A DNA stretch of 64,000 nucleotides from positions 6,106-70,105 of the forward strand of contig JBEKQO010000002.1 in the NCBI GenBank assembly GCA_049519635.1. The letters are read 5' to 3'. Positions 2,606-48,110 of the stretch are shown here, piece by piece. The position numbers and the translations under genes were made by a program. Source of the stretch: Terriglobia bacterium. GTDB lineage: Bacteria; Acidobacteriota; Terriglobia; UBA7540. Every line of letters starts with the position of its first letter. Position 1 is the stretch's first letter. The notes below the pieces were generated by a model that was not told the origin of the DNA, made no database searches, and was given only the letters and a program-made list of their open reading frames with translations.

Positions 2606-4216
2606 TTGAAAGAGACCCTATCCCGCAACTGGCCGCTTTACGCTTCTGTCCTTGTCCTTTTGCTGTTGGTCTGGCTGGTCCTGAGTGTTTCCATTCGCCA
2701 AAATCATGGGAATCTGGTGTATGCGTTTGATGACGCTTACATCACCATGGCGATGGCCCGGAATTTCGCGCAGTACGGCGTGTGGGGGGTTACGCGCTAT
2801 GGCTTCACGTCTTGTACGTCCCCGCCGTTGTGGACGCTCCTTTTGAGTCTTACCTATTACCTGGGGGGAGCGAATCAACTTGCCCCACTCGTGTGGGATC
2901 TGGTCTTTACCGTCCTCATTTTAGCGCTCGCTGACGCCATCCTGTCCTGGTACAAGACACCGGCTGCGGTGAAGTTTGCGGCCCTCCTAAGCATTATCTT
3001 CCTCGTGCCTTTGCCCATGTTCATTCTCTCCGGCATGGAACCGCCCCTGCAAACATTTGTTTCCATGCTTGTCGTTTTTATTGCCGCGCGATGGATAAGC
3101 GGTGAATCACCCGGTACCGCCCGCGGGGATTCGGTCCGGCTACTGATTCTGGCGCCGTTGCTCACCGGGGTACGATTCGAAGGCATGTTCCTGATCATCG
3201 CCATCGCCCTATTCCTATTGATGCTCAAACGATGGTTCTATGCCTTGGTCTTCGGCGCGTTGGGATTTCTCCCCTGGTTCATCTACGGAGTCATTTCCGT
3301 CTCGAAGGGTTGGTTTTGGCTTCCCACTTCGGTCCTTCTGAAGGCTTCCCTGCCGGACTCCCATTCCCCCGCGGCGCTCATCCTCTCGCTGCTTGATCCC
3401 ATCTTTGTTAACCTTCGCGAGGGCTTGCACGTGATGGCACTCATGGTTTCGGTCCCGCTCTTCTATATCATGGCCTGCGGAAAGGGCAGCGGGGGCCGCG
3501 AAAGCCGGCAAATCATGGGCGCGATCGTCTTCCTGACGGGGATCGCACACCTGGAATTTGTGGGAGTCAGCCCCATGTACCGCTACGATGCCTATTGGTG
3601 CGTGTTGGCGATTCTCTTCCTGGCCCTGCAACTCCCATTGGTTGTGCCCCATTGGCCATCGCCGCGATCCTTGTCCACTTGGACCGCGCCCAGAAATCTT
3701 GCCTGCGGCTCCTTGGCCCTTCTGCTTTTCTTCCCGCTGGCAGTGAAGGGAGCAAGGCTCCTTTGGTTTCTTCCCCAATGCACCACGAACATCTTCGAAC
3801 AGCAATACCAAATGGGATTATTTGTCCGCCGGTACTATCAGAATTCCACCGTGGCGCTGAACGACATCGGCGCGGTCAATTATCTTGCGGACATCCATTG
3901 CCTGGATCTATGGGGACTGGCCACCTTTGAGGTCGCCGCAGCAAAACATAAGCATACCTACCAGGTTATGGACATCGAGCGCCTCGCGAAAAAAACCGGG
4001 ACCCGCATCGCAATCATTTACGACAGTTGGTTCATCGGTGGAGTGCCACCGGAATGGATTCGCGTGGGCAGATGGACGATCCAGAATAATGTCATCAATG
4101 GGGGAGATACGGTCTCGTTTTACGCCGTGGAGCCGTCTGAGGCCACCCACCTTAGTGAAAGCCTGGCGGATTTTTCCTCTCAACTGCCTGCCGATGTAAT
4201 CCAAAGGGGGCGGTAG
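2606..4216 (+). CDS. Polytopic membrane protein, GT-C-like glycosyltransferase candidate
   Basis: TTG start 7 nt after AAGGAG. About 11 TM helices followed by a roughly 130-aa soluble C-terminal domain. An early loop motif 'FDDAYITMAMARN' resembles the acidic first-loop motif of GT-C (ArnT/PMT-like) enzymes. Confidence 0.55.
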   Translation: MKETLSRNWPLYASVLVLLLLVWLVLSVSIRQNHGNLVYAFDDAYITMAMARNFAQYGVWGVTRYGFTSCTSPPLWTLLLSLTYYLGGANQLAPLVWDLVFTVLILALADAILSWYKTPAAVKFAALLSIIFLVPLPMFILSGMEPPLQTFVSMLVVFIAARWISGESPGTARGDSVRLLILAPLLTGVRFEGMFLIIAIALFLLMLKRWFYALVFGALGFLPWFIYGVISVSKGWFWLPTSVLLKASLPDSHSPAALILSLLDPIFVNLREGLHVMALMVSVPLFYIMACGKGSGGRESRQIMGAIVFLTGIAHLEFVGVSPMYRYDAYWCVLAILFLALQLPLVVPHWPSPRSLSTWTAPRNLACGSLALLLFFPLAVKGARLLWFLPQCTTNIFEQQYQMGLFVRRYYQNSTVALNDIGAVNYLADIHCLDLWGLATFEVAAAKHKHTYQVMDIERLAKKTGTRIAIIYDSWFIGGVPPEWIRVGRWTIQNNVINGGDTVSFYAVEPSEATHLSESLADFSSQLPADVIQRGR

Positions 4217-4268: not shown

Positions 4269-4289
4269 GTTGCAGTTGCATTGTGCAAC
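4269..4289 (+). promoter_or_regulatory. Candidate enhancer (UAS) half-site cluster
   Basis: GTTGCA GTTGCA ttg TGCAAC (two direct copies plus one inverted). A further TGCAAC lies at 4365-4370. The cluster is 120-220 bp upstream of the -24/-12 element at 4486. Confidence 0.3.
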
Positions 4290-4485
4290 AGCCAGGCATC
4301 CATTAGAAAACAGAGCTCTTTAGGTAGTCGTCAATGGGTCTTATCAAAGAATGCTATTGAGAAATGCAACGAAGCCACGAGACTCTTCCTATTTGTCCGC
4401 TTTCTCGGTATTTCCATAATCTTATCTAACCATCAGAAATTACAGGCGTTATAACACCAACACGAAACCTATATTCGATTGTTAA

Positions 4486-4501
4486 TGGCCACTGGCTTGC
4501 C
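4486..4501 (+). promoter_or_regulatory. Candidate sigma-54 (-24/-12) promoter
   Basis: TGGCCACTGGCTTGCC. GG and GC have exactly the consensus spacing of TGGCACG-N4-TTGCW. It sits in an AT-rich gap upstream of the first GcvH-like gene, and a sigma-54 activator is encoded in the cluster. Confidence 0.5.
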
Positions 4502-4567
4502 TATAGCAAGGGTGAGTTTCGAGTGCTTCGCTTCGCTGCAAGGTGGCTAGGCGCCGAGGGGTGGAAA

Positions 4568-5245
4568 ATGGTAATCACACTGGTTCTAGCAACGTTCATT
4601 CTCTTAGTTGTGCACGACTATTACCTCCAGAGGCGGCACGCGCACCTCATGGAAATGAAGACTGTTGCGCCGGAAGTGCGGGAAGAAGCGCCGGCCTTTC
4701 CTATGAACGTGGTGGGAGGGTTCAAGGCGCCCGCTCACCTTGCGTACCACCCTAGTCATACTTGGGCGATGAAAGAATCGCGCCAAGTCGTGCGCGTCGG
4801 CCTGGATGATTTTGCCGCCCGGGTGATGGGCCAGATCGATCAAATCGACCTGCCGGCGCGGGGCCGTTGGCTGCGGCAGGGGGAGCGCGGATGGACGGTC
4901 GGCCGCGGCACCCATCGCTTCGAAATGCTCTCACCCATCGAGGGCGAGGTCATCGATATCAATCCTGAGGTCCTCCGTAATCCTTCTCTCGCTCATCAGG
5001 ATCCTTACGGCGCGGGCTGGCTGGTGGCCGTGCAAGCTCCGGCGGTGGACGGCAACATGAAAAACCTGTTGCACGGACGGCTGGCGCAACGCTGGATGGA
5101 AGAGTCCGTCGGCGCGCTCCACGCGCACCTTAGCCCGGGCTCGGAGGCTCGTCTGCAAGACGGTGGTCAAGCCATTGGGGATGTGCTCAGCCTGGTACCG
5201 GAATTCCAGTGGGAGAAGTTCGTCGAAGAAATGCTGCTCGGCTAA
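4568..5245 (+). CDS. Membrane-anchored GcvH-like (glycine-cleavage H fold) protein lacking the lipoyl lysine
   Basis: N-terminal TM helix (MVITLVLATFILLVV). H-protein signature 'HTWA...VRVGLDDFA...SPIEGEVIDINPEV...DPYGAGWL'. The alternative GTG start at 4523 would leave almost no leader after the -12 element. Confidence 0.7.
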   Translation: MVITLVLATFILLVVHDYYLQRRHAHLMEMKTVAPEVREEAPAFPMNVVGGFKAPAHLAYHPSHTWAMKESRQVVRVGLDDFAARVMGQIDQIDLPARGRWLRQGERGWTVGRGTHRFEMLSPIEGEVIDINPEVLRNPSLAHQDPYGAGWLVAVQAPAVDGNMKNLLHGRLAQRWMEESVGALHAHLSPGSEARLQDGGQAIGDVLSLVPEFQWEKFVEEMLLG

Positions 5246-5306
5246 GCCCCGCCGCTCCCAAGGTAGCAAGGATGGGTAATGGTCGAAATATCTGTGGAGG
5301 CTCATA

Positions 5307-5990
5307 ATGGTCGCAATCTTTGTGGCATTAATGTTCGTGTGCCTGGTCTTAACTGACTTGGGTGTGGAAAAGTGGAAGGCATGGCATGCGGCGCGGGCCA
5401 TGCAACTTGCAGCAAACGGCGCGGCGCTCGGAAGTGAGTCGCTGTGGCGATTGCCGGATGATGTTCACCTCTCCGACTCGCACACGTGGTTCAGGCCCGA
5501 CCCTACCGGGGGGCTGCAAATTGGCGCCGACCCCCTCATCACCCACGCCATCGGCGCCATTCGCCGGATTGTCCTTCCCATACCGGGTAACCAAGTGGCC
5601 GCCGGTCAGCCGCTTTTCCGCTTGGAGCAAGAGGGTCGCAGCCTCACGGTTCCATGCACCATCACCGGAAAAGTGATGGCGGTAAACATCCGCCTTCAGG
5701 ATCAACCCAGCCTGCTGAATTCAGACCCCTATGGCAACGGTTGGGTCTGCCGCATCGTCCCAACCTCCATCGGACCGGTACCGCCGAAGGTGCATTTTGG
5801 AGAGGAAGCCATCCTCTGGCTGGAAAGCGAATTCACTCGTCTTGGCGAGTTCCTAACCGCCCAAATCCCCACACAAATGCCCCTCGGCGTAACCAGTCAA
5901 GACGGAGGACTTCCCTGCCCCGGCTGCTTGGGCGAACTTGACACGGCTGCTTGGAGCGCGTTTGAGACCGAATTCCTGAATCGGGAGTAG
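5307..5990 (+). CDS. Second membrane-anchored GcvH-like protein, with a C-terminal CPGC motif
   Basis: SD GGAGG upstream and TM helix MVAIFVALMFVCLVL. Motifs 'HTWF...GADPLITHAIG...TITGKVMAVN...DPYGNGWV'. CPGC is encoded at 5916-5927. Confidence 0.7.
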   Translation: MVAIFVALMFVCLVLTDLGVEKWKAWHAARAMQLAANGAALGSESLWRLPDDVHLSDSHTWFRPDPTGGLQIGADPLITHAIGAIRRIVLPIPGNQVAAGQPLFRLEQEGRSLTVPCTITGKVMAVNIRLQDQPSLLNSDPYGNGWVCRIVPTSIGPVPPKVHFGEEAILWLESEFTRLGEFLTAQIPTQMPLGVTSQDGGLPCPGCLGELDTAAWSAFETEFLNRE

Positions 5991-6376
5991 TATCGGCCTG
6001 AACGAAAGAAGATTCACCCGGGAAATCGAAAGGGCGGTTTCACAAAATGGAGCTGCCCTTCGTCCGTCAGACCCCACTCCCAAATCGTGCCTCCGCTGCT
6101 TTTCCCCATAGGGATTCATTCGAATCTAGTGCCGCTCCAACTCATGGGCTCAAAATACCCCTCGTCAGAGCAGCCCGAAGATCGGCCCATCCTGGCCGAT
6201 AGGCGTGCCCCAGATAGTTGAAAGGGCACAGGCCCTGCTAGCTGCGCGCGCGCAAGGTTTTCCCGCCAGAAGAAAGATGGGATTGCGTAATTTCACCACA
6301 GTGACCCTCTGATGCAATCCAGATGCAAGTAACTCGGACTTAAAGGACCTTTGCGAGCCTGAACTGATGAATTTCT

Positions 6377-6392
6377 CGGCACATCGCGTGCA
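6377..6392 (+). promoter_or_regulatory. Candidate sigma-54 (-24/-12) promoter
   Basis: CGGCACATCGCGTGCA has GGCAC and TGCA with consensus spacing, about 75 nt upstream of the ATG at 6466. Two ATGCAA repeats lie at 6312-6317 and 6323-6328. Confidence 0.55.
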
Positions 6393-6465
6393 TACATATC
6401 TTGCGGGTCGGACTTTTATCACAGGAATTTTGCCCAACCTGCCACTTATTGGAGATGTTGAAAAA

Positions 6466-7287
6466 ATGAGCAAATCCATTCTCGTTGACACAACTCGTTG
6501 CATCGGTTGTGGAGCTTGCGCTACCGCCTGTAAGATCGTGAACAATCTTCCTCTCGACGAGCCCAGCGCTGCCAAGGATCTGCCGACAAAGCCATTGAGC
6601 GAAGATGACCTCGTTACCTTCGCACAAAGCCACGGCGAATTGGGCGGCAAATTGTCCGCAGACACACTGAGTGTGGTTCAGACGCACGGCAGCATCTTCG
6701 TGCGGCGATTCTGCATGCATTGCCAAGTACCCACCTGCGCGTCGGTTTGCCCCGTGGGCGCCCTGCACAAAACCGTGGCGGGGCCGGTAGTTTACGATGC
6801 CGACAAATGCATGGGCTGCCGGTATTGCATGATGGCCTGTCCGTTCGGCGTACCGCGCTATGAATGGAACGCGGTCCTGCCCAAAGTGAAGAAGTGCACC
6901 ATGTGCGCGCCCCGGCAGGCCAAAGGCCAGCAACCCGCCTGCACGGAGGTCTGCCCGGTGCAGGCCGGCATTTTCGGCGAGCGCAACGACCTGCTAAAAG
7001 AGGCCGAAAAGCGGTTGCGCGAGGAGCCCTCGAAATACTTTCAGCACATTTACGGCAAGGAAGAGGTGGGGGGAACGTCCGTGCTCTATCTCTCGGCAGT
7101 GCCCTTTGAGCAACTGGGCTTGCCTACCGACCTGCCCACCACCCCCATGCCATTGCTGACCTATCGGGTGCTTTCCAAGATCCCCACCCTTGTCCCCCTG
7201 GCAGGATTGCTCCTGGGCGGGATCTGGTGGATTACTAATCGGCGCGAAGAAGTGGCGGAGGCGGAAAGTAAAGAATCGGGTCATTGA
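6466..7287 (+). CDS. HybA/DmsB-type 4x[4Fe-4S] ferredoxin-like subunit with a C-terminal TM anchor and no signal peptide
   Basis: Four Cys clusters: CIGCGACATAC, CMHCQVPTCASVCP, CMGCRYCMMACP and CTMC...CTEVCP. C-terminal helix LVPLAGLLLGGIWWI. Start chosen at ATG 6466 (GGAGA upstream) because the 6367 start would include the -24/-12 element. Confidence 0.85.
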   Translation: MSKSILVDTTRCIGCGACATACKIVNNLPLDEPSAAKDLPTKPLSEDDLVTFAQSHGELGGKLSADTLSVVQTHGSIFVRRFCMHCQVPTCASVCPVGALHKTVAGPVVYDADKCMGCRYCMMACPFGVPRYEWNAVLPKVKKCTMCAPRQAKGQQPACTEVCPVQAGIFGERNDLLKEAEKRLREEPSKYFQHIYGKEEVGGTSVLYLSAVPFEQLGLPTDLPTTPMPLLTYRVLSKIPTLVPLAGLLLGGIWWITNRREEVAEAESKESGH

Positions 7288-7386
7288 TGCATCGGGTCTT
7301 TTGGCCGTTGATTCATCGGATCATTGGGAAGCAAACAAGAGCTCTTGGAAAGACGCTTTGCATGGCGAGGCAGCCTGAGCGGGTGA

Positions 7387-7521
7387 AAGCGCGGGCACAG
7401 TATCATTCCCGAGGTCCGGCTTCGAAATTTGCTCACCGAAGCCAATGAACTGCAGGCAATCTTTGCCGAATCCCTCTGGACACCAAGGGAAAGAAGTACA
7501 GGGCAGTCCTCAATGCCTTAA
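7387..7521 (+). pseudogene. Remnant of a four-helix-bundle (23S rRNA IVS-type) gene, C-terminal about 44 codons
   Basis: Translates ...SIIPEVRLRNLLTEANELQAIFAESLWT. This parallels the C-terminus ELIKPALLSALIKEANELVAIVLTSRKT of the intact gene at 10671. It is bounded upstream by a stop and has no start codon. Confidence 0.4.
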
Positions 7522-7545
7522 TGACCCGATAGATGGAGTAAATCA

Positions 7546-8706
7546 ATGAATTTCTCTAAACTTCCCAAGCTCACTTTCTGGCGCGTGGTGCTGGTGCTGG
7601 TGCTGGCGGCGGGTTTTTATTCCACGCTGCTGCGGTTCACGAAAGGATTAGGGGCGGCCACCAACCTCTCGGACCAATTCCCCTGGGGGATTTGGATTGG
7701 GTTTGACGTGCTCTGCGGCGTGGGCTTGGCGGCCGGCGGTTTCACCTTGGCGGCGATTGTCTACGTCTTCCACATTGAGCGGTTCCATCCCGTGCTTCGA
7801 CCCTCGATCCTCACCGCCTTCCTGGGCTACGCGCTGGTGGCCGTGGCGCTGCTCTTCGACCTCGGCAAACCTTACAACATTTGGCACCCGCTGGTGATGT
7901 GGAACCCGCACTCCGTAATGTTTGAGGTTGCCTGGTGCGTGACGCTTTACCTCACGGTGCTGGCGCTGGAGTTCTCCCCTGCGGTCCTGGAACGCTTCCA
8001 CCTGGACAAACCCTTGCGCATCGTTAAAGCCCTGACGATCCCGTTGGTGATTGCGGGCGTATTGCTCTCCACTCTGCACCAATCGTCGCTGGGCAGTCTA
8101 TACCTGATTGTTCCGGAAAAGCTGCATCCCTATTGGTATTCGCCGCTGCTGCCCGTGTTCTTCTTCATTTCCGCCGTGGGCGTGGGATTGGCGATGGTGA
8201 TTTTTGAATCCAATCTGAGTTCGCGCGCCTTTGGCCGGGAGATTGAGATGCCCTTGCTGGAAGTGTTGGGCCGGGCGTTGGCCGTGGTGCTGGCAATCTA
8301 CGGCCTGCTGAAGCTTGAGGATCTCTGGAGCCGTGGCGCGCTTGTTCATCTGCGCGAGCCTTCCACGGAGACAGTCCTGTTCCTTTTGGAGATTACGCTG
8401 GGCCTGCTCCTTCCTTTGCCGATGCTGTTTTTCCGCAAGATCCGGGAGGATCGCGAAGGCCTTTTCGCTGTCGCCGTGCTGGTGATCACGGGCTTCCTCC
8501 TGAACCGCTTGAACGTCTCGATTACCGGCATGGAGGCCTCGTCCGGGGTGCATTACTTTCCCCGCTGGACGGAGGTGGCCGTCACGCTATCGATCGTGGG
8601 CGTGGGATTCCTTCTCTTCAGTTTGGCGGTACGCTACCTAAACGTGATGGAGCCCGCCGGAGCCACGCACGCGGCGGGAGAAAACGAAACTCGTGTAGCG
8701 GCGTAG
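7546..8706 (+). CDS. HybB/NrfD-family integral membrane quinone-interacting subunit
   Basis: 386 aa, about 10 TM helices. The N-terminal signature 'GLGAATNLSDQFPWGIWIGFDVLCGVGLAAGGF' closely parallels E. coli HybB 'GLGSVSDLNGGFPWGVWIAFDLLIGTGFACGGW'. Confidence 0.85.
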   Translation: MNFSKLPKLTFWRVVLVLVLAAGFYSTLLRFTKGLGAATNLSDQFPWGIWIGFDVLCGVGLAAGGFTLAAIVYVFHIERFHPVLRPSILTAFLGYALVAVALLFDLGKPYNIWHPLVMWNPHSVMFEVAWCVTLYLTVLALEFSPAVLERFHLDKPLRIVKALTIPLVIAGVLLSTLHQSSLGSLYLIVPEKLHPYWYSPLLPVFFFISAVGVGLAMVIFESNLSSRAFGREIEMPLLEVLGRALAVVLAIYGLLKLEDLWSRGALVHLREPSTETVLFLLEITLGLLLPLPMLFFRKIREDREGLFAVAVLVITGFLLNRLNVSITGMEASSGVHYFPRWTEVAVTLSIVGVGFLLFSLAVRYLNVMEPAGATHAAGENETRVAA

Positions 8707-8718
8707 GGGCCCTCGCCA

Positions 8719-8935
8719 AGCGCCCTACTTCTCACGACGCGGGGCCGCTTCGGAAGGCGGCGGGAAGGGTGGGGGTATTGCTCCATGGGAATCGCGCCTC
8801 CCGCCCTCTGTTCGCCTCGCGCCCCGCGCAGCACCCATTTGCGTGGGACGCCAAGCGCGGGAATAATTAGGAAGGCTTGGTAACCGCGAGGATAAAGCGC
8901 CACCCTTCCCAACCCTTGGTGAGAAGCCCGCGCTA
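8719..8935. repeat. Degenerate copy of the family-A composite palindromic element
   Basis: Left arm ...CTACTTCTCACGACGCGGGGCC... and right arm ...CACCCTTCCCAACCCTTGGTGAGAAGCCCGCGCTA. Both resemble the arms at 19411-19624. Confidence 0.5.
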
Positions 8936-8951
8936 TGGTTAAGGACCCTGA

Positions 8952-10559
8952 ATGCCAAGGTTAACTCACAGTTTGGCGATTAAGCTGACGGCCTGCGTGG
9001 TGGGGGGCATGGCGCTCCTCTTCTCGATCTATGGGTATTGGAACCTGCGGCTGTGGCGGCAATCGCAGCAGGAAATCATCTTCCAGAGCGCCGACCGCAT
9101 CAGTGACACAATTCGCCGCAGCATCCGCTACTCGATGCTGCGCAACCAGCGCGAGGAAGTATTTCACATCATCAACACCATCGGGCATGAGAGCGGCATC
9201 AGCCGCATCCGCATTTTCAATAAGGAAGGGCAAATCAGCTTTTCCACCGACGATAAAGAGGTGGGACAGTTTGTGGATAAGAAAGCGGAGGCGTGTTACG
9301 CCTGTCACGCGCAGGCCCAACCCTTGGCGCGGCTCGACCGGCCGGACCGGATGCGCATTTACACCGTGCGCGACGGCACGAGGGTCCTGGGCTTGATCCG
9401 GCCCATCGAAAACGAGGCGGATTGTTCCAACGCTGCCTGCCATGCCCACACCGGCGGCAACCAGGTTCTGGGCGTGCTTGACACCAATGTCTCCCTCGCC
9501 GCCATGGACCTTGCCGTGGCACAGCACGAGCGCCGAGCGATAATCTTCACCGCTGCCGCGCTTCTGGTCGTAAGCCTGTTCACTGCCTGGCTGATCTGGC
9601 TGACTGTGTACAAGCCCGTACACCAGCTCACCGAGGGCACGCGCGCCGTGGCCCAGGGCGACCTGGATTATCTGCTGCCTGAGACTAGCCAGGACGAGAT
9701 CGGCAGCCTGGCCGTTTCCTTCAATCAAATGACCCAAGAACTCAAGAAGGCGCAAGCGGAAAACCGCCAATGGACCGAGACCCTGGAAGACCGCGTGCGG
9801 CAGAAGACCGGGGAACTCGAATCCGCCTATCGCAGCCTGACGCAATCGGAAAAGATGGCCTCCCTAGGTAAGTTGGCGGCGGTGGTGGCGCACGAAATCA
9901 ACAATCCCCTGGCAGGCATCCTGACTTACAGCAAGCTGGTTTCGCGCATGGCTGACAAGGGCTTCGACGAGAACCGGCGCCTGGCCGAGGCCAAAAGCTA
10001 TTTGCAGATCATCGAGGGAGAAAGCCGGCGCTGCGGGGGTATTGTCAAGAACCTGCTCACGTTCGCGCGGCAGAATCCTATCAACCCGCAGAAGAACGAT
10101 CTGAATGCCATCATTGAACGCTGCCTGCTTTTGGTAGGGCATCAGATGACTTTGCAGAACATCGAACTGGAAAAAAACCTGGCGGCCGACCTGCCCGCGC
10201 TTTATTGCGACGCCGGCCAAGTGCAACAAGCGTTGCTGGCGATCCTCATGAACGCGGTCGAAGCCCTGCCGCAAGGCGGCCGGTTGGGCGTGAAGAGCGC
10301 CTTCGACCCGGCGCGGCGCTTGGGCCGCGTGGTGGTGAGCGATGAAGGACCGGGCATCCCGCCGGAGGTCCTTTCGCACATCTTCGAACCCTTTTTCACG
10401 ACCAAAGAAGAGGGCAAGGGAACGGGTCTGGGCCTGGCTATTGCCCTCGGCATCGTACAGCAACACGGGGGAAACATCGAGGTGGTTTCCACCCCGCAGA
10501 AAGGGACGGTGTTCACCGTCCTGCTGCCGGAGGAGCCGCCGGTAAGAATTGACGATTGA
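8952..10559 (+). CDS. Sensor histidine kinase (TM - periplasmic domain with CXXCH - TM - HAMP - HisKA - HATPase_c)
   Basis: H-box 'VAHEINNPLAGI'. N/G boxes 'NAVEA', 'DEGPGIP' and 'GTGLGLAI'. A HAMP-like segment follows the second TM. CYACH is at 9294-9308 and CSNAACH at 9423-9443. Confidence 0.9.
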   Translation: MPRLTHSLAIKLTACVVGGMALLFSIYGYWNLRLWRQSQQEIIFQSADRISDTIRRSIRYSMLRNQREEVFHIINTIGHESGISRIRIFNKEGQISFSTDDKEVGQFVDKKAEACYACHAQAQPLARLDRPDRMRIYTVRDGTRVLGLIRPIENEADCSNAACHAHTGGNQVLGVLDTNVSLAAMDLAVAQHERRAIIFTAAALLVVSLFTAWLIWLTVYKPVHQLTEGTRAVAQGDLDYLLPETSQDEIGSLAVSFNQMTQELKKAQAENRQWTETLEDRVRQKTGELESAYRSLTQSEKMASLGKLAAVVAHEINNPLAGILTYSKLVSRMADKGFDENRRLAEAKSYLQIIEGESRRCGGIVKNLLTFARQNPINPQKNDLNAIIERCLLLVGHQMTLQNIELEKNLAADLPALYCDAGQVQQALLAILMNAVEALPQGGRLGVKSAFDPARRLGRVVVSDEGPGIPPEVLSHIFEPFFTTKEEGKGTGLGLAIALGIVQQHGGNIEVVSTPQKGTVFTVLLPEEPPVRIDD

Positions 10560-10667
10560 GGATTGTCGATTGTCGATTGAAAGGACGGTCGAATAACGAT
10601 GGATTGATAACATTTGACAGCGAAGTGAGATTTCTTCTCCGTCAATCGGCCATCGACAATCGACAAT
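10554..10667. repeat. Inverted array of GATTGTC-type short units flanking the four-helix-bundle gene
   Basis: GATTGAGGATTGTCGATTGTCGATTGA (10554-10580) faces TCAATCGGCCATCGACAATCGACAAT (10642-10667). A third copy, GTCAATCGAAAATCGACAATCGGCAATT, lies at 11028-11055. Confidence 0.7.
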
Positions 10668-10670
10668 TTC

Positions 10671-11087
10671 ATGACGCCAAAGGAAATGCAGGCTCGGACC
10701 AAGGAGTTCGCTGTGCGGGTGATTAAATTGGTAGATGCGCTGCCTCGAGGTCTGGCCCCACAGGTCATCGGCCGGCAGCTCATACGTTCGGCCACTTCGG
10801 TGGGCGCCAACTACCGGGCCGCTTGCCGGGCCCAATCGCGCGCCGAGTTTGCGGCCAAGCTTTCGATTGTTGTGGAAGAATCGGACGAATCGCTCTACTG
10901 GCTGGAGTTAGTGCGTGAGACGGAACTTATAAAACCTGCGCTTTTGTCGGCCCTCATCAAAGAGGCCAACGAACTTGTGGCCATCGTACTGACGTCGAGA
11001 AAAACTGCGAAAACGCATGTGCGTCCAGTCAATCGAAAATCGACAATCGGCAATTCCAAGTTGTTAGGAGCACATCATGAACTCTAA
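10671..11087 (+). CDS. Four-helix-bundle protein (23S rRNA intervening-sequence protein family)
   Basis: 'FAVRVIKLVDALPRG...IGRQLIRSATSVGANYRAACRAQSRAEFAAKLSIVVEESDESLYWLELV' is the hallmark of this family. It is wedged between the kinase and regulator genes. Confidence 0.85.
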   Translation: MTPKEMQARTKEFAVRVIKLVDALPRGLAPQVIGRQLIRSATSVGANYRAACRAQSRAEFAAKLSIVVEESDESLYWLELVRETELIKPALLSALIKEANELVAIVLTSRKTAKTHVRPVNRKSTIGNSKLLGAHHEL

Positions 11088-12432
11088 GGCCAGCATCCTG
11101 ATCGTGGACGATGAAAACGTTGTCCGGGACTCGCTGGGGAAATGGTTCGAGGAAGAAGGGTACAGTGTGGACACGGCCAATAGCGCGCGCGAGGCACTGC
11201 TGAAGCTGCCACGCCAGCGTTGGGACCTGGCGCTGCTGGACATCAAGATGCCCGGCATGGACGGCCTCGAGCTGCACCGCAAGATCCGCGAGGTCGATCC
11301 CGACATCATCGTCATCATCATGACCGGCTACGCTGCCGTGGATACCGCGGTACAAGCGCTCAAGGATGGGGCCTACGACTACATCATGAAGCCCTTCGAC
11401 CCCGATGACCTGGCCCACGTTGTCGCCAAAGCCCTCGAACATCGCCGCACGCGGGAGGAAAATCTGCGCTTACGCGAGAGCCTGGAGGAAGCTCAGGCAG
11501 TCGAGTTGGTGGGCCAGGGGCAGCCCATGCAGCGGGTGCTCGAAAGCATTCGCACCGTGGCGCCCAACGACACCACGGTGCTCATCCACGGTGAAAGCGG
11601 AACCGGCAAGGAGCTCGTGGCGCGCGCCATCCACAATTTGAGCCCCCGCCGCTTTATGCCTCTGGTCACCATCCACTGCGGAGCGCTGACAGAAACGCTG
11701 CTGGAAAGCGAGCTCTTCGGGCATGAGAAGGGCGCCTTCACCGGCGCGCAGTACCGCAAAAAGGGCAAGTTCGAAGTCGCCGAGGGGGGCACGGTCTTTC
11801 TCGATGAGATTGCCGACATCAGCCTGAAAACCCAAACCGACTTGCTGCGCGTCCTCCAGGAGAAGGAGATCACGCGGGTAGGCGGCAACCAGACGATCAA
11901 GGTGGATTTTCGTGCCATCGCCGCCACCAACAAGGAATTGACGACGCTGGTCAAAGCGGGGACCTTCCGCCCCGATCTTTACTACCGCCTGGATGTTTTC
12001 GGCATCACGCTGCCGCCGCTGCGCGAGCGCAAAGAGGACATCCCGCTGCTCGTCGATCATTTCCTGCGCAAATATTCGCGTGCCATGAACAAGCATTTCA
12101 CCAGCATCAGCCGCGCGTCGCTCGACGTCCTGATGAACTACCAATGGCCGGGCAATGTTCGGGAATTGGAGAACGCCATTGAACGCGCCATGGTGATCGG
12201 GCATCAGCCGGAAATTCAGGCCTCGGATTTCCCCCTCCAGGTCTCGAAGCCGCCCGCACCGGAGGGCAGCATGGCCCTGGAAGACGTGGAGCGCGGGCAC
12301 ATCCAGCGCGTGCTCGAAGGTTGTGACTGGAACCAGACGCGCGCCGCCAAGGCGCTCGGCATTGATCGCGTCACGCTCTACAATAAGATTAAGAAATACG
12401 GATTCCGGAAGGCGGACGCAGCCGCGCAATGA
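11077..12432 (+). CDS. Sigma-54-dependent response regulator (REC - AAA+ - Fis-type HTH; NtrC family)
   Basis: REC (DDENVVRDSL...D...K), Walker A 'GESGTGKE', the 'GAFTGA' sigma-54 contact loop, and a C-terminal HTH 'NQTRAAKALGIDRVTLYNKIKKYG'. SD AGGAG at 11066. Confidence 0.95.
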   Translation: MNSKASILIVDDENVVRDSLGKWFEEEGYSVDTANSAREALLKLPRQRWDLALLDIKMPGMDGLELHRKIREVDPDIIVIIMTGYAAVDTAVQALKDGAYDYIMKPFDPDDLAHVVAKALEHRRTREENLRLRESLEEAQAVELVGQGQPMQRVLESIRTVAPNDTTVLIHGESGTGKELVARAIHNLSPRRFMPLVTIHCGALTETLLESELFGHEKGAFTGAQYRKKGKFEVAEGGTVFLDEIADISLKTQTDLLRVLQEKEITRVGGNQTIKVDFRAIAATNKELTTLVKAGTFRPDLYYRLDVFGITLPPLRERKEDIPLLVDHFLRKYSRAMNKHFTSISRASLDVLMNYQWPGNVRELENAIERAMVIGHQPEIQASDFPLQVSKPPAPEGSMALEDVERGHIQRVLEGCDWNQTRAAKALGIDRVTLYNKIKKYGFRKADAAAQ

Positions 12433-12959
12433 GAATCCTCTCCCTAATGCCGGTTGGACGAGTTGACCGCGCCCTGCTGGAGCCTCTCGCCGAGGACCTG
12501 ACGCGGTGCCTGCGCGTGGCTTGTTCCATTCAACCCGACGGCCTGGAGGCGGAATTCGCCTTCAATCCCCTGCGCCGGCAGTATCACTCCACCGAGATCC
12601 TCAAGAAGATTCTCCAGAGGCCCGCGAGCGAAGCCTGGAAGGTATTGGGGGTGACGGAAATGGACCTCTACATCCCCGTGCTCACCTTTGTATTCGGGGA
12701 AGCACAACTAGCGGATGGCGGAGCGGTGGTCTCTGCCCATCGCCTGCACCAGGAGTTCTACGGCATGCCCACTGACCCCGGACTCCTCCACGAACGCCTG
12801 CTGAAAGAGTCCCTCCACGAACTGGGCCACACCTACGGCCTGCGCCATTGCCCGGATTATTCCTGCGTGATGAGCTCCTCCAACGCCGTCGAACGTATCG
12901 ACCTGAAGCGCGCCGAGTTCTGCCCCCAATGCGCCCAACTCGTAGGGTGCCCGACGTAG
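12429..12959 (+). CDS. Archaemetzincin-like zinc metallopeptidase (M54-like)
   Basis: Motif HELGHTYGLRHCPDYSCVM...CPQC matches the archaemetzincin signature HEXXHXXGX3CX4CXM...CXXC. The start overlaps the regulator stop (ATGA at 12429-12432). Confidence 0.85.
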   Translation: MRILSLMPVGRVDRALLEPLAEDLTRCLRVACSIQPDGLEAEFAFNPLRRQYHSTEILKKILQRPASEAWKVLGVTEMDLYIPVLTFVFGEAQLADGGAVVSAHRLHQEFYGMPTDPGLLHERLLKESLHELGHTYGLRHCPDYSCVMSSSNAVERIDLKRAEFCPQCAQLVGCPT

Positions 12960-34209: not shown

Positions 34210-35064
34210 TCACAAAGACGATTCGTTCTCAGCGAGGTACATGATCCCCATCCGGTAAAGTTCCTGGGAGGGCGCCTTGGAACAGTGGACCACGCGAGCG
34301 TCGACAAAAACGTTCACGGCCCGGGGTAAATACGGAACCGCGACTTGGATGTAGGAACCGGAGGGGTAGTGCCGGCTGCTGGTGAAACACAGCCCGCCGT
34401 GGGAAATGTCCACGGTAGTTTCCACGTCGTCGTGCCGCCCAGCCTGGCGAACGCAGACGGGTATCGCTTCCGCCACCCGGCGATGCCTCCGCTTGTCCTT
34501 GGCTAGTGGGGGAGGCCCGACCGCGAGCCGGGTGGGATTCGCCGGCCCTGACTCTGGTGGTTTCATCGTCTCTTGCGGCAACTCCAGCCAAATCGTCGCC
34601 TTCCCGCACATGGCGCAATTGAGGGAAAGCTGCCGATGGGTGTTGTAGGCCGCCAGCTTGACCGGATCAAGGTGAACGATCTTGCGCGTCCCGCAGACCT
34701 GGCAGCCAAGCAGGGCTCGCCCGGCAGTGTCACGGTCCGAGGGTAAGGGTGGAAAATAAATGTCCCAGAAACCCACCGCGGGTTTCCGGAACGCCACACT
34801 GAATATTTGCAGTTCTGACTGATCCCCGGCTTTCCCCACCACCTGGCATTCCTCCAAGCGGGGAAGAGAGGTCCGCTGACGGCGGATGATGATCTGCTGA
34901 CCGGGAACGAGCGCGGTCCTCAGCGCAATCCCCGCCCCGTTCTGAGAGACCGTCACGGTGGTGGCGTCTTCGGAAAAGGGTTTTCCGGCAGCGTCCGTTC
35001 CGGAAACTGAAATCGGTAGCGCAATTAAGACGCGATCGCTACGACGTTTGCTGATCTCCTCCAT
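34210..35064 (-). CDS. PilZ - zinc-ribbon - PilZ protein (putative c-di-GMP receptor)
   Basis: N-terminal 'RRSDRVLIALPISVSG' and C-terminal 'RRHRRVAEAIPVCVR...DISHGGLCF' are PilZ-type RxxxR...D/NxSxxG elements. The central CQVCG...CAMCG is a Cys4 ribbon. Confidence 0.7.
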   Translation of the reverse strand: MEEISKRRSDRVLIALPISVSGTDAAGKPFSEDATTVTVSQNGAGIALRTALVPGQQIIIRRQRTSLPRLEECQVVGKAGDQSELQIFSVAFRKPAVGFWDIYFPPLPSDRDTAGRALLGCQVCGTRKIVHLDPVKLAAYNTHRQLSLNCAMCGKATIWLELPQETMKPPESGPANPTRLAVGPPPLAKDKRRHRRVAEAIPVCVRQAGRHDDVETTVDISHGGLCFTSSRHYPSGSYIQVAVPYLPRAVNVFVDARVVHCSKAPSQELYRMGIMYLAENESSL

Positions 35065-35304
35065 AAACGCTTCTCCCGTGAAATCACATCGTACGGCAAG
35101 CCGGACTCAACTTTGCGGTTCTCGCCCTGGAAAAATTACTTTCGCTTGCACCCAAGGGCGTACTAGGGTTTCTTCCATCGGCCTCGTCGGCAGTCCCACC
35201 GGGTTGGATTAGTAAGAGCAGTCACCGATTCTGCCCTTGCTCCAATCGGTCGCCAGATCAGATGGCGGGCGATAGGAGCGACGGCGACGCGCCGCCAGCA
35301 TGGT

Positions 35305-36651
35305 TCACGCCTGGAACACCTTCTGCGCCCAGTCCACCGCTGCCAAGTAAGCGGAGGAGAGTTGCGACTCATCTTGCCGGAGGCTCCTGGCGAGTTCGCC
35401 GACTTCAGTCCATCTCCCCGCTTCGAAAGCCGTGACCAAATTGAGGATTTCCCGGTAGCCGTTGGGCCTTCCCAGGAGGGCGGCTCGGACCGTATCGGGC
35501 AGAGCAATCTCCGACACAATTTCTGCCATCGGCAGGCCCAACATTGCTTCCATCAGCGAGAAAACTCCCAGAAGAAACGTGCCCTGCCGGTCTTTCCGCG
35601 TGTCCAGGTTCGCGGCCAACAGCTCGCAGCAGCGGCCTCGCGTGAGCGCCGTCAGAACCAGTTCGTTGGGCTCATTGCCGGCGATGCCCAGAACCGCCGC
35701 TACCGACGCCCATTTCGTCAGCGCGCGATCGCCGAGCAGTTCCAGCGCCTGCCGCGTGGAACCGATATCGCGCCGGAAGCCCAAAAGGGCCGAGTTCACA
35801 AATCGCAGCAGCTTATAGCAAAGCGAGACCTCACGGTCAATCAGTGCCACGATTTCGGTCCGGTCCAATTCCGGTTTGCTGATCGCCTGCAGGATGCGCA
35901 GGTAGTGAAGCTTGAAGGCCGGAATGTGACGGCTGGGGACAATCTGTGGCTCGCAAAAAAAATAGCCCTGGAAGTAAAGATAGCCGCTGTCGCGAGCTTC
36001 GGCGAATTCGGCGCGCGTTTCCACCTTTTCCGCCAGCAGTTGGATCCCGCCCGGCGAGAATTTGGCCACCGCTTGCTGCCTGTCGCCCGGCCCCGAAAGC
36101 TTGAAATCGACCTTGATTATGTTGGCCAGATCGACAAAGGGTTGGAATTTCTCGGCATAAACAAAATCGTCCAGGGCGATGACGTAGCCCAGGGCTTTTA
36201 ATCTTCGGCAGGCAGCGAGCACTTCGGCGTCGGGCTCAACCGTCTCGAGAATCTCGATAATGGTCTCCTCTTTAGAAAGAAGGGTGGCATACTCGTTCAC
36301 AAGAAACTGGCGGGTGCAGTTTAGAAAGGCTTTTCGACCGGCGGTAAGCGTCCTCGCGCCGATGGTGAGGATGTTGTCAGCCACGTCGCGCGCCGCGGCG
36401 TCGCCGTCGCTTGCGGTATAGCGGTTTTCCAGCCCCGAACGAAAAAGGAGTTCGTAACCGTAGACCTGTTCGCGGCGATTAAAAATCGGCTGCCGCGCGA
36501 CGAAGCGTGTTGGACCGGAAGCGGCGAAAGGCGATTCGGGCGATGTCGTAAAGGAGTCCACGTAGCGCTTATCGGCACTTTTATCGCAATAATAAGCAAC
36601 CTCGGCGCGGTGACGCTTGCCGTGGGACGCGAGGGGCAAATGCCGTCCCAT
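35305..36651 (-). CDS. EAL-HDOD domain protein (c-di-GMP phosphodiesterase-like)
   Basis: 'FVARQPIFNRREQVYGYELLFRSG', 'IALDDF', 'IKVDF' and 'LAEKVET' (EAL), then an HDOD-like C-terminal half. The start is uncertain: ATG 36651, TTG 36684 or GTG about 36556. Confidence 0.85.
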   Translation of the reverse strand: MGRHLPLASHGKRHRAEVAYYCDKSADKRYVDSFTTSPESPFAASGPTRFVARQPIFNRREQVYGYELLFRSGLENRYTASDGDAAARDVADNILTIGARTLTAGRKAFLNCTRQFLVNEYATLLSKEETIIEILETVEPDAEVLAACRRLKALGYVIALDDFVYAEKFQPFVDLANIIKVDFKLSGPGDRQQAVAKFSPGGIQLLAEKVETRAEFAEARDSGYLYFQGYFFCEPQIVPSRHIPAFKLHYLRILQAISKPELDRTEIVALIDREVSLCYKLLRFVNSALLGFRRDIGSTRQALELLGDRALTKWASVAAVLGIAGNEPNELVLTALTRGRCCELLAANLDTRKDRQGTFLLGVFSLMEAMLGLPMAEIVSEIALPDTVRAALLGRPNGYREILNLVTAFEAGRWTEVGELARSLRQDESQLSSAYLAAVDWAQKVFQA

Positions 36652-36839
36652 GATGCCCAAATACTGGATGCCCCTGAAATACAATGGGTTAGAAGACCTT
36701 GCCCGAGCGGGCGCGCCAACCCGGCCGCCATGAATAAACTCGCGTATGTGCTAAAAGAATCAAACAGTTTGGCCGGCTATTTTCTCCATAGCGGGCCCCC
36801 ACTGGGCGTGCGGCGACAAACTTCAAATTCTCTTGTCAT

Positions 36840-46662: not shown

Positions 46663-46850
46663 GGCGCACACGACGACGGATCCCTACGTCTCCACCCTCC
46701 TACCCCGCCCGATTGGATTTTGGACTCAAGATTGCCCGCACTCTGCCGATTAGAAAGGGATGAGAACCTCCGTGTACACGGGGGTTGGGCGGCTGCCGCA
46801 GCGGCAAGTTTAGTGTCAGGAGCCGCTGCGAGCAAGAGAGGCCTTTGGTC

Positions 46851-48110
46851 ATGTACAGGTTTATTGCCCGGCAGCCCATCCTGGACCGCTACGAAAACGT
46901 CTATGGTTACGAGCTTCTCTCTCGTCCCGGGGAAGAAGAAGTCTGGCCACCGATGAACGGCGCGCGCGCCGGGGAAAAAGCCTCTCCGGTCACTCCCGCA
47001 TTGGAAGAAATCGACAAGCTCAGCGACGGCGTGCGCGCCTTCATCAGATGCACGCGTCAAGCATTGATCGATGGCCGCGCCGCAGAGTTACCCCGCGACC
47101 GTGTCGTATTGGAGATCCTTGCGACCAGAGAACCCGACCAAGAGGTGGTGGCGGCCTGCCGGAGTTTGAAAGATGCCGGGTTTTTGATCGCTTTGGACGA
47201 TTTCCAGGGCGCGTGGGAGGAGCCGCTGGCCGATCTGGCCGACATCATCAAGGTGGATGTAACCGCCTCTACCGATCGAGCACAATGGCTGCTTATCCGG
47301 AAGTTTCGGCCGCGAGGCACAATTTTTGTGGCAAAAAAGGTGGAAAAGCGCGCGCAGTTTCAGGCCGCCGTGCAGCAGGGCTTTTACTATTTCCAGGGCC
47401 AATTCTACTCCCGGCCGCAGCCTTACGCGGCTTCCGAGGTTAGCCCCACAAAGTTGGTTTACTTGCTCGTTCTGCGTGCCGTCACCCGGCCGGAAATCAA
47501 TGTGGAGGAAGTCGCCTACACCATCAAGCATGATCTGGCCCTGTCCTACAAGCTGCTGCGGTTCTTGAACTCTGCGCGTTTCGCCTTTCACTCGCGCATC
47601 AAATCCATACGGCACGCCCTCCTGCTGCTGGGACAGAATGAAATTCGCAAGTGGATCGGGCTGATTTCCTTGGCCGCCTTGGGCGAAGGCGGTCCTCCCA
47701 TTCTGGTGAAAATGGCTCTGATCCGCGCGGCGATGTGCGAGTCCCTTGCGCCGCTGGTGGGCGAGCCGAAACGCGAATCCGATTACTTTTTCTTGGGGTT
47801 GCTTTCCAGTATCGATGTTCTTATGCGGCGTCCCATGCGCGTGGTGCTGGCGGAACTACCCATTACGCCGGATGTAGGCGCGGCGCTGGTGGGTGAGCAG
47901 AATCCGCTCCGCGACGTCCTCCGGGCCGTCATCAGCTACGAAGAAGGCAACTGGGAGGAGTTCGCCCAATTGGCAAAGACATTGGCGCTGAATGAGGAGA
48001 AGCTTTCCAAACTATACATGCACGCCCTTCTCTGGAGCCGGGAGCTTACCCAGGAGGAAAAAGCCGATCCCGCCAAGGCGACGTCTCAGCCTTCTGAAGC
48101 CGTGAAATAA
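46851..48110 (+). CDS. EAL-HDOD domain protein (paralogue of 35305-36651)
   Basis: Start MYRFIARQPILDRYENVYGYELLSRPG, then 'IALDDF', 'IKVDV' and 'VAKKVE', followed by an HDOD-like C-terminal half. Confidence 0.85.
   Translation: MYRFIARQPILDRYENVYGYELLSRPGEEEVWPPMNGARAGEKASPVTPALEEIDKLSDGVRAFIRCTRQALIDGRAAELPRDRVVLEILATREPDQEVVAACRSLKDAGFLIALDDFQGAWEEPLADLADIIKVDVTASTDRAQWLLIRKFRPRGTIFVAKKVEKRAQFQAAVQQGFYYFQGQFYSRPQPYAASEVSPTKLVYLLVLRAVTRPEINVEEVAYTIKHDLALSYKLLRFLNSARFAFHSRIKSIRHALLLLGQNEIRKWIGLISLAALGEGGPPILVKMALIRAAMCESLAPLVGEPKRESDYFFLGLLSSIDVLMRRPMRVVLAELPITPDVGAALVGEQNPLRDVLRAVISYEEGNWEEFAQLAKTLALNEEKLSKLYMHALLWSRELTQEEKADPAKATSQPSEAVK

Follow-up and report, generated by a model that had tools for sequence, protein, structure and literature searches.

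A widely conserved Hmc/Hyb-related gene cluster with GcvH-fold proteins, a putative haem-sensing kinase and sigma-54 promoters in Acidobacteriota

What is a membrane module of the HybA/HybB type for, when neither a hydrogenase nor a molybdoenzyme is encoded beside it? The question is raised by a gene cluster at positions 4269-12959 of a 64,000-nucleotide stretch of DNA from a Terriglobia bacterium (contig JBEKQO010000002.1; the whole of this stretch is referred to below as the window), in which two consecutive genes for GcvH-like proteins (GcvHL1 and GcvHL2) are followed by genes for a tail-anchored iron-sulphur (Fe-S) protein, a membrane subunit of the NrfD family, a sensor histidine kinase with c-type haem motifs, an NtrC-type activator of sigma-54 promoters and an archaemetzincin (peptidase M54). 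An earlier interpretation of these letters, made without database searches (here called the sequence-only reading), saw in them a cytoplasm-facing, quinone-linked module whose partners would be swinging-arm-like carrier proteins. Much of anaerobic respiration is joined to the quinone pool through modules of the NrfD family, and the pair formed by a tail-anchored ferredoxin and a HybB-like protein has only lately been recognised as a free-standing recurrent unit.

We conclude that this is a real unit, related to Hmc and Hyb, which is widely conserved and seems not to have been described. The interpretation that we favour, and which we judge to be about evenly balanced between right and wrong, is that it specifies a quinone module of the HmcBC(D) type for periplasmic c-haem partners, under haem-sensor and sigma-54 control, with non-lipoylated GcvH-fold proteins as accessory subunits. 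The module would thus be a relative of HmcB-HmcC-HmcD in which the HmcD component has become fused to a GcvH fold. We argue for this from the conservation of the gene set, from the orientation of the membrane subunit, and from the nature of the GcvH-like proteins and the signals upstream of their genes, and then weigh it against other explanations.

Gene content and conservation of the cluster

Every element listed in the sequence-only reading was found on the plus strand, the genes as open reading frames (ORFs) with matches to Pfam or NCBIfam profiles, some starts being corrected. Two genes of the IVP family, one intact and one decayed, are additions to that list. The features are as follows.

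2606-4216, plus strand: polytopic membrane protein of 536 aa, without family match (ORF listing and profile search)
4568-5245, plus strand: GcvHL1, 225 aa (Pfam GCV_H, E=3e-19)
5307-5990, plus strand: GcvHL2 (Pfam GCV_H, E=9e-16)
6466-7287, plus strand: tail-anchored Fe-S protein with 4x[4Fe-4S], 273 aa, starting MSKSILVD
7288-7545, plus strand: spacer with a frameshifted, decayed IVP (four-helix-bundle) gene; no component of the machine (tblastn)
7546-8706, plus strand: membrane subunit of the NrfD/HybB/HmcC type (Pfam NrfD, E=1e-23)
8952-10559, plus strand: sensor histidine kinase (Pfam HAMP, HisKA and HATPase)
10671-11087, plus strand: intact four-helix-bundle protein, 23S_rRNA_IVP / TIGR02436 (Pfam E=3e-16; TIGR02436 82 bits, cut-off 24)
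11077-12432, plus strand: NtrC-type sigma-54 activator with REC, AAA+ and Fis-type helix-turn-helix (HTH) domains (Sigma54_activat E=2e-68, Response_reg, HTH_8)
12429-12959, plus strand: archaemetzincin, peptidase M54 (NCBIfam archmetzin 168 bits, cut-off 145)

When genomes, one per species, were scanned with an alignment of 10 GcvHL sequences, 567 relatives were found, and the best 80 of these, which were mapped, came nearly all from Acidobacteriota, with one from Binatia. Of about 24 informative close loci, 18 have the order GcvHL1-GcvHL2-Fe-S-NrfD-kinase-NtrC-M54. Seven distant loci, in Sulfotelmatobacter-like organisms and Binatia (42-46% GcvHL identity), have a single GcvHL gene that is divergent or convergent to an operon of overlapping Fe-S, NrfD, kinase, NtrC and M54 genes, and in these the GcvH-like gene is the only one with a -24/-12 element. 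Five further loci with most of the set were reached through homologues of the kinase sensor (down to 36% identity): one has NrfH/NrfA genes downstream, another a Rieske/cytochrome b/multihaem set alongside, and a third MtrC-like cytochromes; in one variant the NrfD and GcvHL genes overlap. Finally, a metagenome scan seeded with the second GcvHL subtype gave 80 loci of a lower-GC sister clade, two members of which are labelled Deltaproteobacteria by NCBI. Here the order is GcvHL-(small transmembrane protein)-Fe-S-NrfD-GcvHL-(variable gene)-kinase-NtrC-M54, the variable gene encoding either a Cys-rich or REC-fused GcvHL protein or a class III cytochrome c3; and in 26 of the 31 metagenomic loci of at least 8 kb an NrfD-type gene lies beside a GcvH-like gene. 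Co-conservation of the GcvH-like, Fe-S and NrfD genes, on which the sequence-only reading had hinged, therefore holds, together with the genes for the kinase, NtrC and archaemetzincin, in close, distant, kinase-reached and metagenomic loci. All the genes of the cluster are under purifying selection (dN/dS 0.05-0.32).

The same reading had seen no adjacent catalytic partner. For hydrogenases and molybdoenzymes this stands, none having been seen beside the acidobacterial clusters or at related loci, and none (nor any cytochrome) among the larger ORFs of the remaining c. 50 kb of the window; it stands only in part for cytochromes, which that reading had named among the neighbours that would refute it, as related loci quite often have c-type cytochrome genes, either a class III cytochrome c3 gene between the NrfD and kinase genes or multihaem c and cytochrome b genes alongside.

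Genes of anaerobic respiration adjoin related clusters at L084 (1-1389), L085 (2879-6926), L087 (1245-4267) and L172 (2776-5533); they encode a nitrite reductase (NrfH/NrfA), a set of Rieske, cytochrome b and multihaem proteins, decahaem cytochromes of the MtrC type, and a further triplet of cytochrome, Fe-S and NrfD proteins. In four close loci (L001, L008, L009 and L010) identity to the window is only 59-67% for the Fe-S and NrfD proteins, against mostly 81-92% for GcvHL1, kinase and NtrC (in L001, GcvHL1 is 70% and M54 65% identical). This dip suggests cassette replacement or recombination of the Fe-S/NrfD pair.

The intact IVP gene between the kinase gene and ntrC, which overlaps the ntrC start by 11 nt, is an insertion-like passenger. 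Such genes occupy varying intergenic positions in L002, L010 and L086 and are missing from most orthologous clusters, and the remnant at 7288-7545 has its counterpart in L010, where an intact copy lies between the same genes (tblastn: E=1e-16, 76% identity over 38 aa). The differing positions suggest a small mobile or insertion-prone gene. Beyond the cluster, the next gene after that for archaemetzincin is glgX, on the opposite strand; other signalling genes in the window, some of them related to cyclic di-GMP (a PilZ protein, two EAL-HDOD proteins and a REC-HD protein, at 34210-36684 and 46785-49673), have no relation to the cluster.

Orientation of the membrane subunit and the Fe-S export signal

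Both of the putative electron-transfer subunits are closer to Hmc than to Hyd-2 models, though below the cut-offs of either. Among NCBIfam profiles, the Fe-S protein (16 Cys in four cluster motifs, a C-terminal transmembrane (TM) helix and no signal peptide) is matched best by HmcB (278 bits, cut-off 420), with HybA at 222 (cut-off 263), and its closest solved relative is FdnH (1kqf_B, E=6e-31). The NrfD-type subunit, with 10 predicted TM helices and both termini cytoplasmic, is matched best by HmcC (335, cut-off 550), with HybB at 310 (cut-off 450); it is 31% identical to E. coli HybB, and a sequence search with it against the PDB gave no match at E<=0.01. The corresponding HmcB and HmcC scores in the sister clade are higher, at 347 and 420 bits.

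Which way does this pair face? Lysines and arginines were counted in the termini and even loops, for comparison with the odd loops, giving 14 vs 7 for the window NrfD protein, 13 vs 5 for E. coli HybB, and means of 15.4 vs 8.6 for eight aligned acidobacterial orthologues and 16.9 vs 6.7 for 32 sister-clade proteins. Such counts over 22 acidobacterial and 32 sister-clade sequences exclude an inverted topology. SoeABC, a relative of these modules, faces the cytoplasm; an inversion of that type, with the Fe-S docking face cytoplasmic, is not what we find here, the charge bias having the sign and size seen in HybB. Moreover, the window protein shares 18 of the 25 HybB residues that were checked (among them D58, D109, E133, R89, Y99, E148, H184, K198, H200, E291 and R329) and has conservative replacements at three more (Y84F, R265K, E268D). 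The HybB residues that are thus kept have been assigned to a P-side quinone site and two proton half-channels, and mutation of R89, Y99, E148 and H184 impairs Hyd-2; the NrfD family in general has its quinone site on the P-side, where it adjoins the Fe-S subunit (Calisto and Pereira, PMC8076601).

The Fe-S protein presents a difficulty, since its orthologues in Acidobacteriota have no evident means of export. The sequence-only reading was right that the window protein has no Sec or Tat signal: translation could begin as far upstream as 6367, but conservation does not extend to the 33 residues so added, and many orthologues have a stop codon 1-5 codons ahead of the conserved MSK[AS][IL]L start, so that an upstream start adding a twin-arginine (Tat) or Sec signal is ruled out. 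None of the 23 acidobacterial orthologues has room for either signal, and all 23 keep 16 out of 16 cysteines at a dN/dS of about 0.1. In the sister clade, every complete Fe-S protein opens with a twin-arginine signal (e.g. MDRRTFLK, MGIDRRSFLK) and ends in the same C-tail. In the window protein the flank of the C-tail (NRREE) resembles the RRNTKN of HybA.

Taken together, the shared charge topology, the HybB quinone and proton residues and the Tat signals of the sister clade indicate that the module ancestrally faces the periplasm, and the acidobacterial lineage would then have lost the Fe-S Tat signal. These same features, with the HybA-like flank, run contrary to the cytoplasm-facing module of the sequence-only reading. 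As the most economical guess, the acidobacterial Fe-S subunit may reach the outer face by co-export with a Tat-signal partner encoded at an unlinked site. Conserved neighbours were considered for this role (aldose epimerase, SDR, GlnD, CysK/CysE and others), and none was relevant.

GcvH-fold proteins, sensor kinase and promoters

If the module faces outwards, what is the part played by the GcvH-like proteins? The start of GcvHL1 is the ATG at 4568, which follows a GAGGGG Shine-Dalgarno sequence and agrees with the length of its homologues (nearly all of 225 aa); the GTG at 4523 was rejected. GcvHL1 is 100% identical to a protein from a Terriglobia metagenome-assembled genome. GcvHL2 is a divergent paralogue (23% identical) of the same architecture, each protein having one N-terminal hydrophobic helix, and both are under purifying selection (dN/dS 0.09-0.17 for GcvHL1 and 0.18-0.32 for GcvHL2). 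An AlphaFold2 (AF2) model of GcvHL1, built with 42 diverse relatives (pLDDT 92), has a TM helix at residues 2-31, C-terminal helices at 170-223, and a domain that superimposes on Thermus thermophilus GcvH (1onl) with a Foldseek TM-score of 0.90 and a root-mean-square deviation of 1.6 Å; the C-terminal helical extension of some 60 residues had no structural match. With 1,596 cluster representatives at E<=1e-10 the family is a large one, and it retains the motifs YHxGHxW, GxDDFA and DPYGxGW, to which the extension adds an invariant QDGG and two tryptophans.

What the family does not retain is the lipoyl-lysine. In alignment with E. coli GcvH the relevant column has T in GcvHL1 and G in GcvHL2, and K in only 9 of 304 family members, and in a profile-to-PDB alignment the lysine of T. 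thermophilus GcvH (1onl) falls on a variable glycine. Some sister-clade members have a lysine one position away, but it is not invariant. With TIGR00527 (gcvH) the window proteins score 65 and 53 bits against a cut-off of 116. It follows that the GcvHL proteins are not lipoyl swinging arms, and the carrier role proposed for them earlier has to be given up. A CPGC sequence at the C-terminus of GcvHL2 was considered as a redox-active CxxC, and rejected as only one of its cysteines is partly conserved in orthologues.

The side of the membrane on which the GcvH fold lies can be judged from natural fusions. In one, a signal peptide and a multihaem cytochrome c precede a single TM helix and a GcvHL domain; others have the architecture REC-GcvHL or TM-REC-GcvHL. 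These place the GcvHL domain in the cytoplasm, as the sequence-only reading had supposed, and the window proteins are accordingly GcvH-fold domains tethered at the cytoplasmic face by one TM helix. Further fusions were noted in the set P0168, P0170, P0221 and P0227: to a periplasmic tetrahaem cytochrome c via one TM helix, to an HdrA/MvhD-like flavo-Fe-S protein, to Cys-rich zinc-ribbon-like segments, and, as a triple GcvHL, to an FAD-oxidase and CCG (HdrD/GlcF-like) protein.

In the sister clade, the gene following that for NrfD gives some indication of a closer relationship. The NrfD stop and the GcvHL start overlap there by 22 nt in L135, L142 and L161 (and, in an unrelated arrangement, by 17 nt in L088), and the TM helix of the sister-clade GcvHL protein encoded after NrfD has a weak match to the Pfam family PF28260, 'DVU_0533'. 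From the locus order of the hmc operon, we take DVU0533 to be hmcD. A figure legend in PMC10924467 agrees with this. Six sister-clade loci (L131, L138, L140-L142, L170) also encode a one-TM protein of about 90 aa without family match, which ends ..L(T/A)(L/M)ADGG.. and so recalls the QDGG of GcvHL, as if it were a GcvHL protein minus the GcvH domain.

The kinase has two TM helices flanking a periplasmic domain with the motifs CYACH and CSNAACH, whose residues (C115, C118 and H119 of the CxxCH; C158, C163 and H164 of the CxxxxCH) are invariant in 33 homologues, down to 35% identity; the sister-clade kinase carries the same two motifs. An AF2 model of this domain (pLDDT 78) is PAS/PDC-like and matches the sensor domains of WalK, KinD and CitA. 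A weak alignment (E=0.05) pairs CSNAACH with CQSCH, the haem motif of GSU0935 (3b42), a haem-c sensor of Geobacter, and the Pfam family PF21563 (Mcp40H-20_sensor) scores 24.2, under its threshold of 27. NtrC follows the kinase in nearly every complete cluster recovered. The archaemetzincin, co-conserved as the last gene of the set, has the motifs HELGHTYGLRH (HExxHxxGxxH) and CPDYSC...CPQC (a Cys-rich second metal site), and its start overlaps the ntrC stop as ATGA, so that the two genes would be translationally coupled.

Four sequence elements bear on the control of the cluster, two of them (the -24/-12 elements) having been noticed in the sequence-only reading.

4275-4289: perfect palindrome GTTGCATTGTGCAAC (GTTGC-N5-GCAAC), c. 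210 nt upstream of the GcvHL1 -24/-12 element; likely upstream activator site (UAS)
4356-4370: second, imperfect copy of the palindrome, ATTGAGAAATGCAAC, in a block conserved in the alignment
4486-4501, plus strand: -24/-12 element TGGCCACTGGCTTGCC, upstream of GcvHL1
6377-6392, plus strand: -24/-12-like element CGGCACATCGCGTGCA, 89 nt upstream of the Fe-S gene

As bare matches to the consensus, neither -24/-12 element is above chance in the window; orthologous loci nevertheless have both (TGGCCACTGGCTTGCC and CGGCACATCGCGTGCA) at comparable positions. Most of the close, distant and stand-alone acidobacterial loci examined have a GG-N10-GC element at 68-95 nt ahead of the GcvHL1-type gene, and near-consensus sigma-54 sites precede the first GcvH-like gene in the sister clade. 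Ahead of the Fe-S gene, CGGCAY-N5-GTGCW occurs (mostly at 84-96 nt) in 17 out of 17 close loci and in none of the distant acidobacterial ones.

The palindromes emerged from an alignment of 15 orthologous upstream regions. The perfect GTTGC-N5-GCAAC occurs once in the 64 kb, and the second position has a perfect copy in L012, L014 and L022. Among the 80 loci, at the acidobacterial ones with a GcvHL1-type match, the palindrome (with at most one mismatch) is 54-fold enriched in the region 60-450 nt upstream of the GcvHL genes (2.68 vs 0.05 per kb), favouring distances of c. 210 and c. 295-325 nt from the start codon, and in three sister-clade loci GTTGA-N5-GCAAC lies 182 nt upstream of the near-consensus sigma-54 sites. 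No palindromic UAS was found near the Fe-S promoter, so that the GcvH-like gene is the activator's clearest target. Conserved promoters and enriched palindromes together lend support to the sigma-54 wiring proposed in the sequence-only reading. About 40 loci without a nearby kinase or NtrC gene are included in the enrichment, and regulation by this activator family probably extends to stand-alone GcvHL genes elsewhere in these genomes.

The stand-alone genes (L032-L082) usually come after a gene for a secreted protein of c. 220 aa, often with the addition of a second secreted protein and/or one or two polytopic membrane proteins of c. 650-700 aa. The 536-aa membrane protein (2606-4216) was compared with these large membrane proteins as a possible homologue, and gave no matches.

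A proposed mechanism, its rivals and known systems

How might such a set of proteins work? By homology, the NrfD subunit would have its binding site for menaquinone or menaquinol close to the membrane's outer face, together with HybB-like proton half-channels, the tail-anchored 4x[4Fe-4S] protein serving as its electron wire. This wire would lead to periplasmic c-type haem proteins and not to a catalytic enzyme, and the candidate partners are cytochromes whose genes lie elsewhere and, possibly, the kinase of the set itself, whose two-haem periplasmic domain is the only c-haem protein always present in it. The kinase may read the periplasmic redox state via its haems and phosphorylate the NtrC-type activator (a direction of control that we infer), which would bind the GTTGC-N5-GCAAC palindromes and fire the sigma-54 promoter before the GcvH-like gene(s); in close relatives a second -24/-12 element precedes the Fe-S operon. 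The GcvH-like proteins are envisaged as docking on the cytoplasmic side of NrfD in an accessory or regulatory, non-redox capacity, because of the HmcD-like TM helix in the sister clade, the overlap with the NrfD stop, and the REC fusions beside the kinase.

Several observations weigh against this scheme. Some 40 loci in Acidobacteriaceae have a GcvHL1-type gene by itself, with the same promoter and palindromes and no Fe-S or NrfD gene within 10 kb, and in L018 and L021 GcvHL1, kinase, NtrC and M54 genes occur without Fe-S and NrfD, so that the GcvH-like protein does not depend strictly on an adjacent quinone module. The contact between GcvHL and NrfD is proposed from gene order and one weak Pfam match, and that match was not seen on the GcvHL proteins of the window itself, nor recorded for relatives of its GcvHL1; the attachment of c-haem to the kinase is likewise predicted from its motifs. 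The close acidobacterial loci have no cytochrome gene linked to the cluster. Finally, it is from homology that the outward placement is argued for the signal-less Fe-S proteins of all 23 acidobacterial orthologues, and no Tat-signal partner is conserved nearby in acidobacterial loci or present among the scanned ORFs of the 64 kb.

A serious rival, if in our estimation an unlikely one, is that the Fe-S and NrfD proteins are the input device of a wired redox sensor, which would equilibrate the kinase haems with the menaquinone pool, the GcvH-like proteins being the sigma-54-dependent output. This would account for the needlessness of a catalytic partner, and it suits the constant order of the Fe-S, NrfD, kinase, NtrC and M54 genes in most clusters (with overlaps in the distant acidobacterial operons), the presence in those distant loci of a -24/-12 element before the divergent GcvH-like gene and not before the Fe-S gene, and the position of the kinase sensor as the sole invariable c-haem protein. 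However, the HybB-type proton-channel residues, which are fully conserved, would be superfluous for a mere sensor wire; a cytochrome c3 gene, with multihaem cytochromes as neighbours, is present in addition in some clusters of the sister clade; L018 and L021 retain the haem kinase with no Fe-S/NrfD pair adjacent to it; and a signal-less Fe-S protein poses the same problem of export as before.

We think it improbable that the association is one of regulation only, the GcvH-like genes being targets of NtrC that encode a sigma-54-dependent membrane or envelope-response protein with no physical link to Fe-S/NrfD. The stand-alone loci with their shared promoter and palindromes, the absence of Fe-S/NrfD from L018 and L021, and the fusion of GcvH-fold domains to receiver domains are all as this would predict; but it leaves unexplained the overlap of NrfD and GcvHL genes in two unrelated arrangements (L135/L142/L161 and L088), the match of a GcvHL TM helix to the Pfam HmcD family, and the occurrence of GcvH-like genes on both sides of Fe-S/NrfD in the sister clade.

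The inward-facing arrangement of the sequence-only reading, with a cytoplasmic Fe-S protein passing electrons between quinone and GcvH-like carrier arms, keeps a small probability: none of the 23 acidobacterial orthologues, which are all under purifying selection and have no linked Tat partner, carries an export signal, the GcvH-like domains are cytoplasmic, and SoeABC is included in the NrfD family (PMC8076601). It is nevertheless improbable given GcvH-like proteins with neither lipoyl-lysine nor conserved Cys pair, and thus nothing to carry electrons, an NrfD protein not inverted with respect to HybB or the Tat-positive sister clade, a family quinone site on the P-side beside the Fe-S subunit (PMC8076601), and the HybA-like flank of the Fe-S C-tail.

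Returning to the favoured HmcBC(D)-type module, we offer one more far-reaching version of it, possible but in our view doubtful: that there is a widespread complex, in Acidobacteriota, Binatia and Deltaproteobacteria-type organisms, in which an HmcBC module is capped on its cytoplasmic side by HmcD-GcvH fusions, and on which the haem kinase acts directly via the REC-fused fold. If so, the GcvH fold would have been co-opted by a respiratory quinone module, as a subunit that regulates or gates it, and the loss of the Tat signal in Acidobacteriota would imply either a new hitchhiking partner or a re-routed topology. That loss, under purifying selection, is in effect a natural experiment. The cluster would give a first functional context to the membrane-anchored, lysine-less GcvH-like family (with its c. 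1,600 cluster representatives), to HmcD and to bacterial archaemetzincins, and this in abundant peat and soil Acidobacteriota, in which the control of anaerobic electron flow is little known.

How, then, does the cluster compare with systems already described? No paper describing it was found, and searches of the literature for the pairings NrfD with GcvH, HybA/HybB with H-protein, archaemetzincin with sigma-54, and RpoN with H-protein and NrfD all drew a blank, in agreement with the sequence-only reading, which knew of no system of this composition. The pair of tail-anchored ferredoxin and HybB-like quinol oxidase is a recurrent module, usually encoded with c-type cytochromes and found also within Hmc, and a signal-less variant of it is presumed to be exported along with an [FeFe] hydrogenase that bears a Tat signal (Gallego-Parrilla et al. 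2024, PMC10924467). As in that module, the Fe-S gene of our clusters, with its C-tail, is directly upstream of the HybB-like gene (the two being separated in the window by the decayed insertion). The survey reports no GcvH-like, haem-kinase, NtrC or archaemetzincin context, whereas here the pair has these as a fixed set of partners, along with a defined cis-regulatory code of palindrome and -24/-12 promoter; and the signal-less acidobacterial variant, at 23 loci, has no adjacent Tat-signal enzyme.

Hmc of Desulfovibrio vulgaris (HmcABCDEF) is the closest likeness, HmcB and HmcC being the best-scoring curated models (though below their equivalog cut-offs), and in both systems a tail-anchored Fe-S subunit is followed by a cofactor-less NrfD-type subunit, then (in the sister clade, with the weak HmcD match) by a single-TM protein, and then by regulator genes. 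Unlike Hmc, the cluster (and the scanned ORFs of the window) lacks the 16-haem HmcA, the cytochrome b HmcE and the CCG-type HmcF; its small TM subunit would be fused to a GcvH-fold domain; its Fe-S subunit has no Tat signal in Acidobacteriota; and its regulatory genes, for haem kinase, NtrC and archaemetzincin, take the place of Rrf1/Rrf2. E. coli hydrogenase 2 likewise combines a 4x[4Fe-4S] C-tail protein (HybA) with a 10-TM, cofactor-less quinone subunit (HybB), whose K/R topology and quinone and proton-transfer residues are conserved in the cluster; but HybA has its own Tat signal, and the cluster has no genes for the hydrogenase HybO/HybC or for its maturation.

The GcvH-like proteins share with GcvH, and with the lipoate-binding LbpA proteins of the sHdr system of sulphur oxidation (PMC6067878), the fold (TM-score 0.90) and the retained DPYGxGW and HxW motifs. 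They differ in having no lipoyl-lysine, in the added N-terminal TM anchor and extension of c. 60 residues with QDGG, and in the absence of GcvT/GcvP, Hdr and lipoate-ligase genes from their vicinity. The sensor recalls those of Geobacter GSU0582/GSU0935 in its periplasmic PAS-like domain with c-haem motifs (and weak matches to Mcp40H-20_sensor and 3b42), but it has two haem motifs, one of them CxxxxCH, and its output is a histidine kinase and not a chemoreceptor. In the way that it appears to be wired, the cluster follows a familiar pattern: a HisKA/HATPase kinase is paired with a REC-AAA+-HTH activator, and -24/-12 promoters are accompanied by upstream palindromic sites, as in NtrB/NtrC systems.

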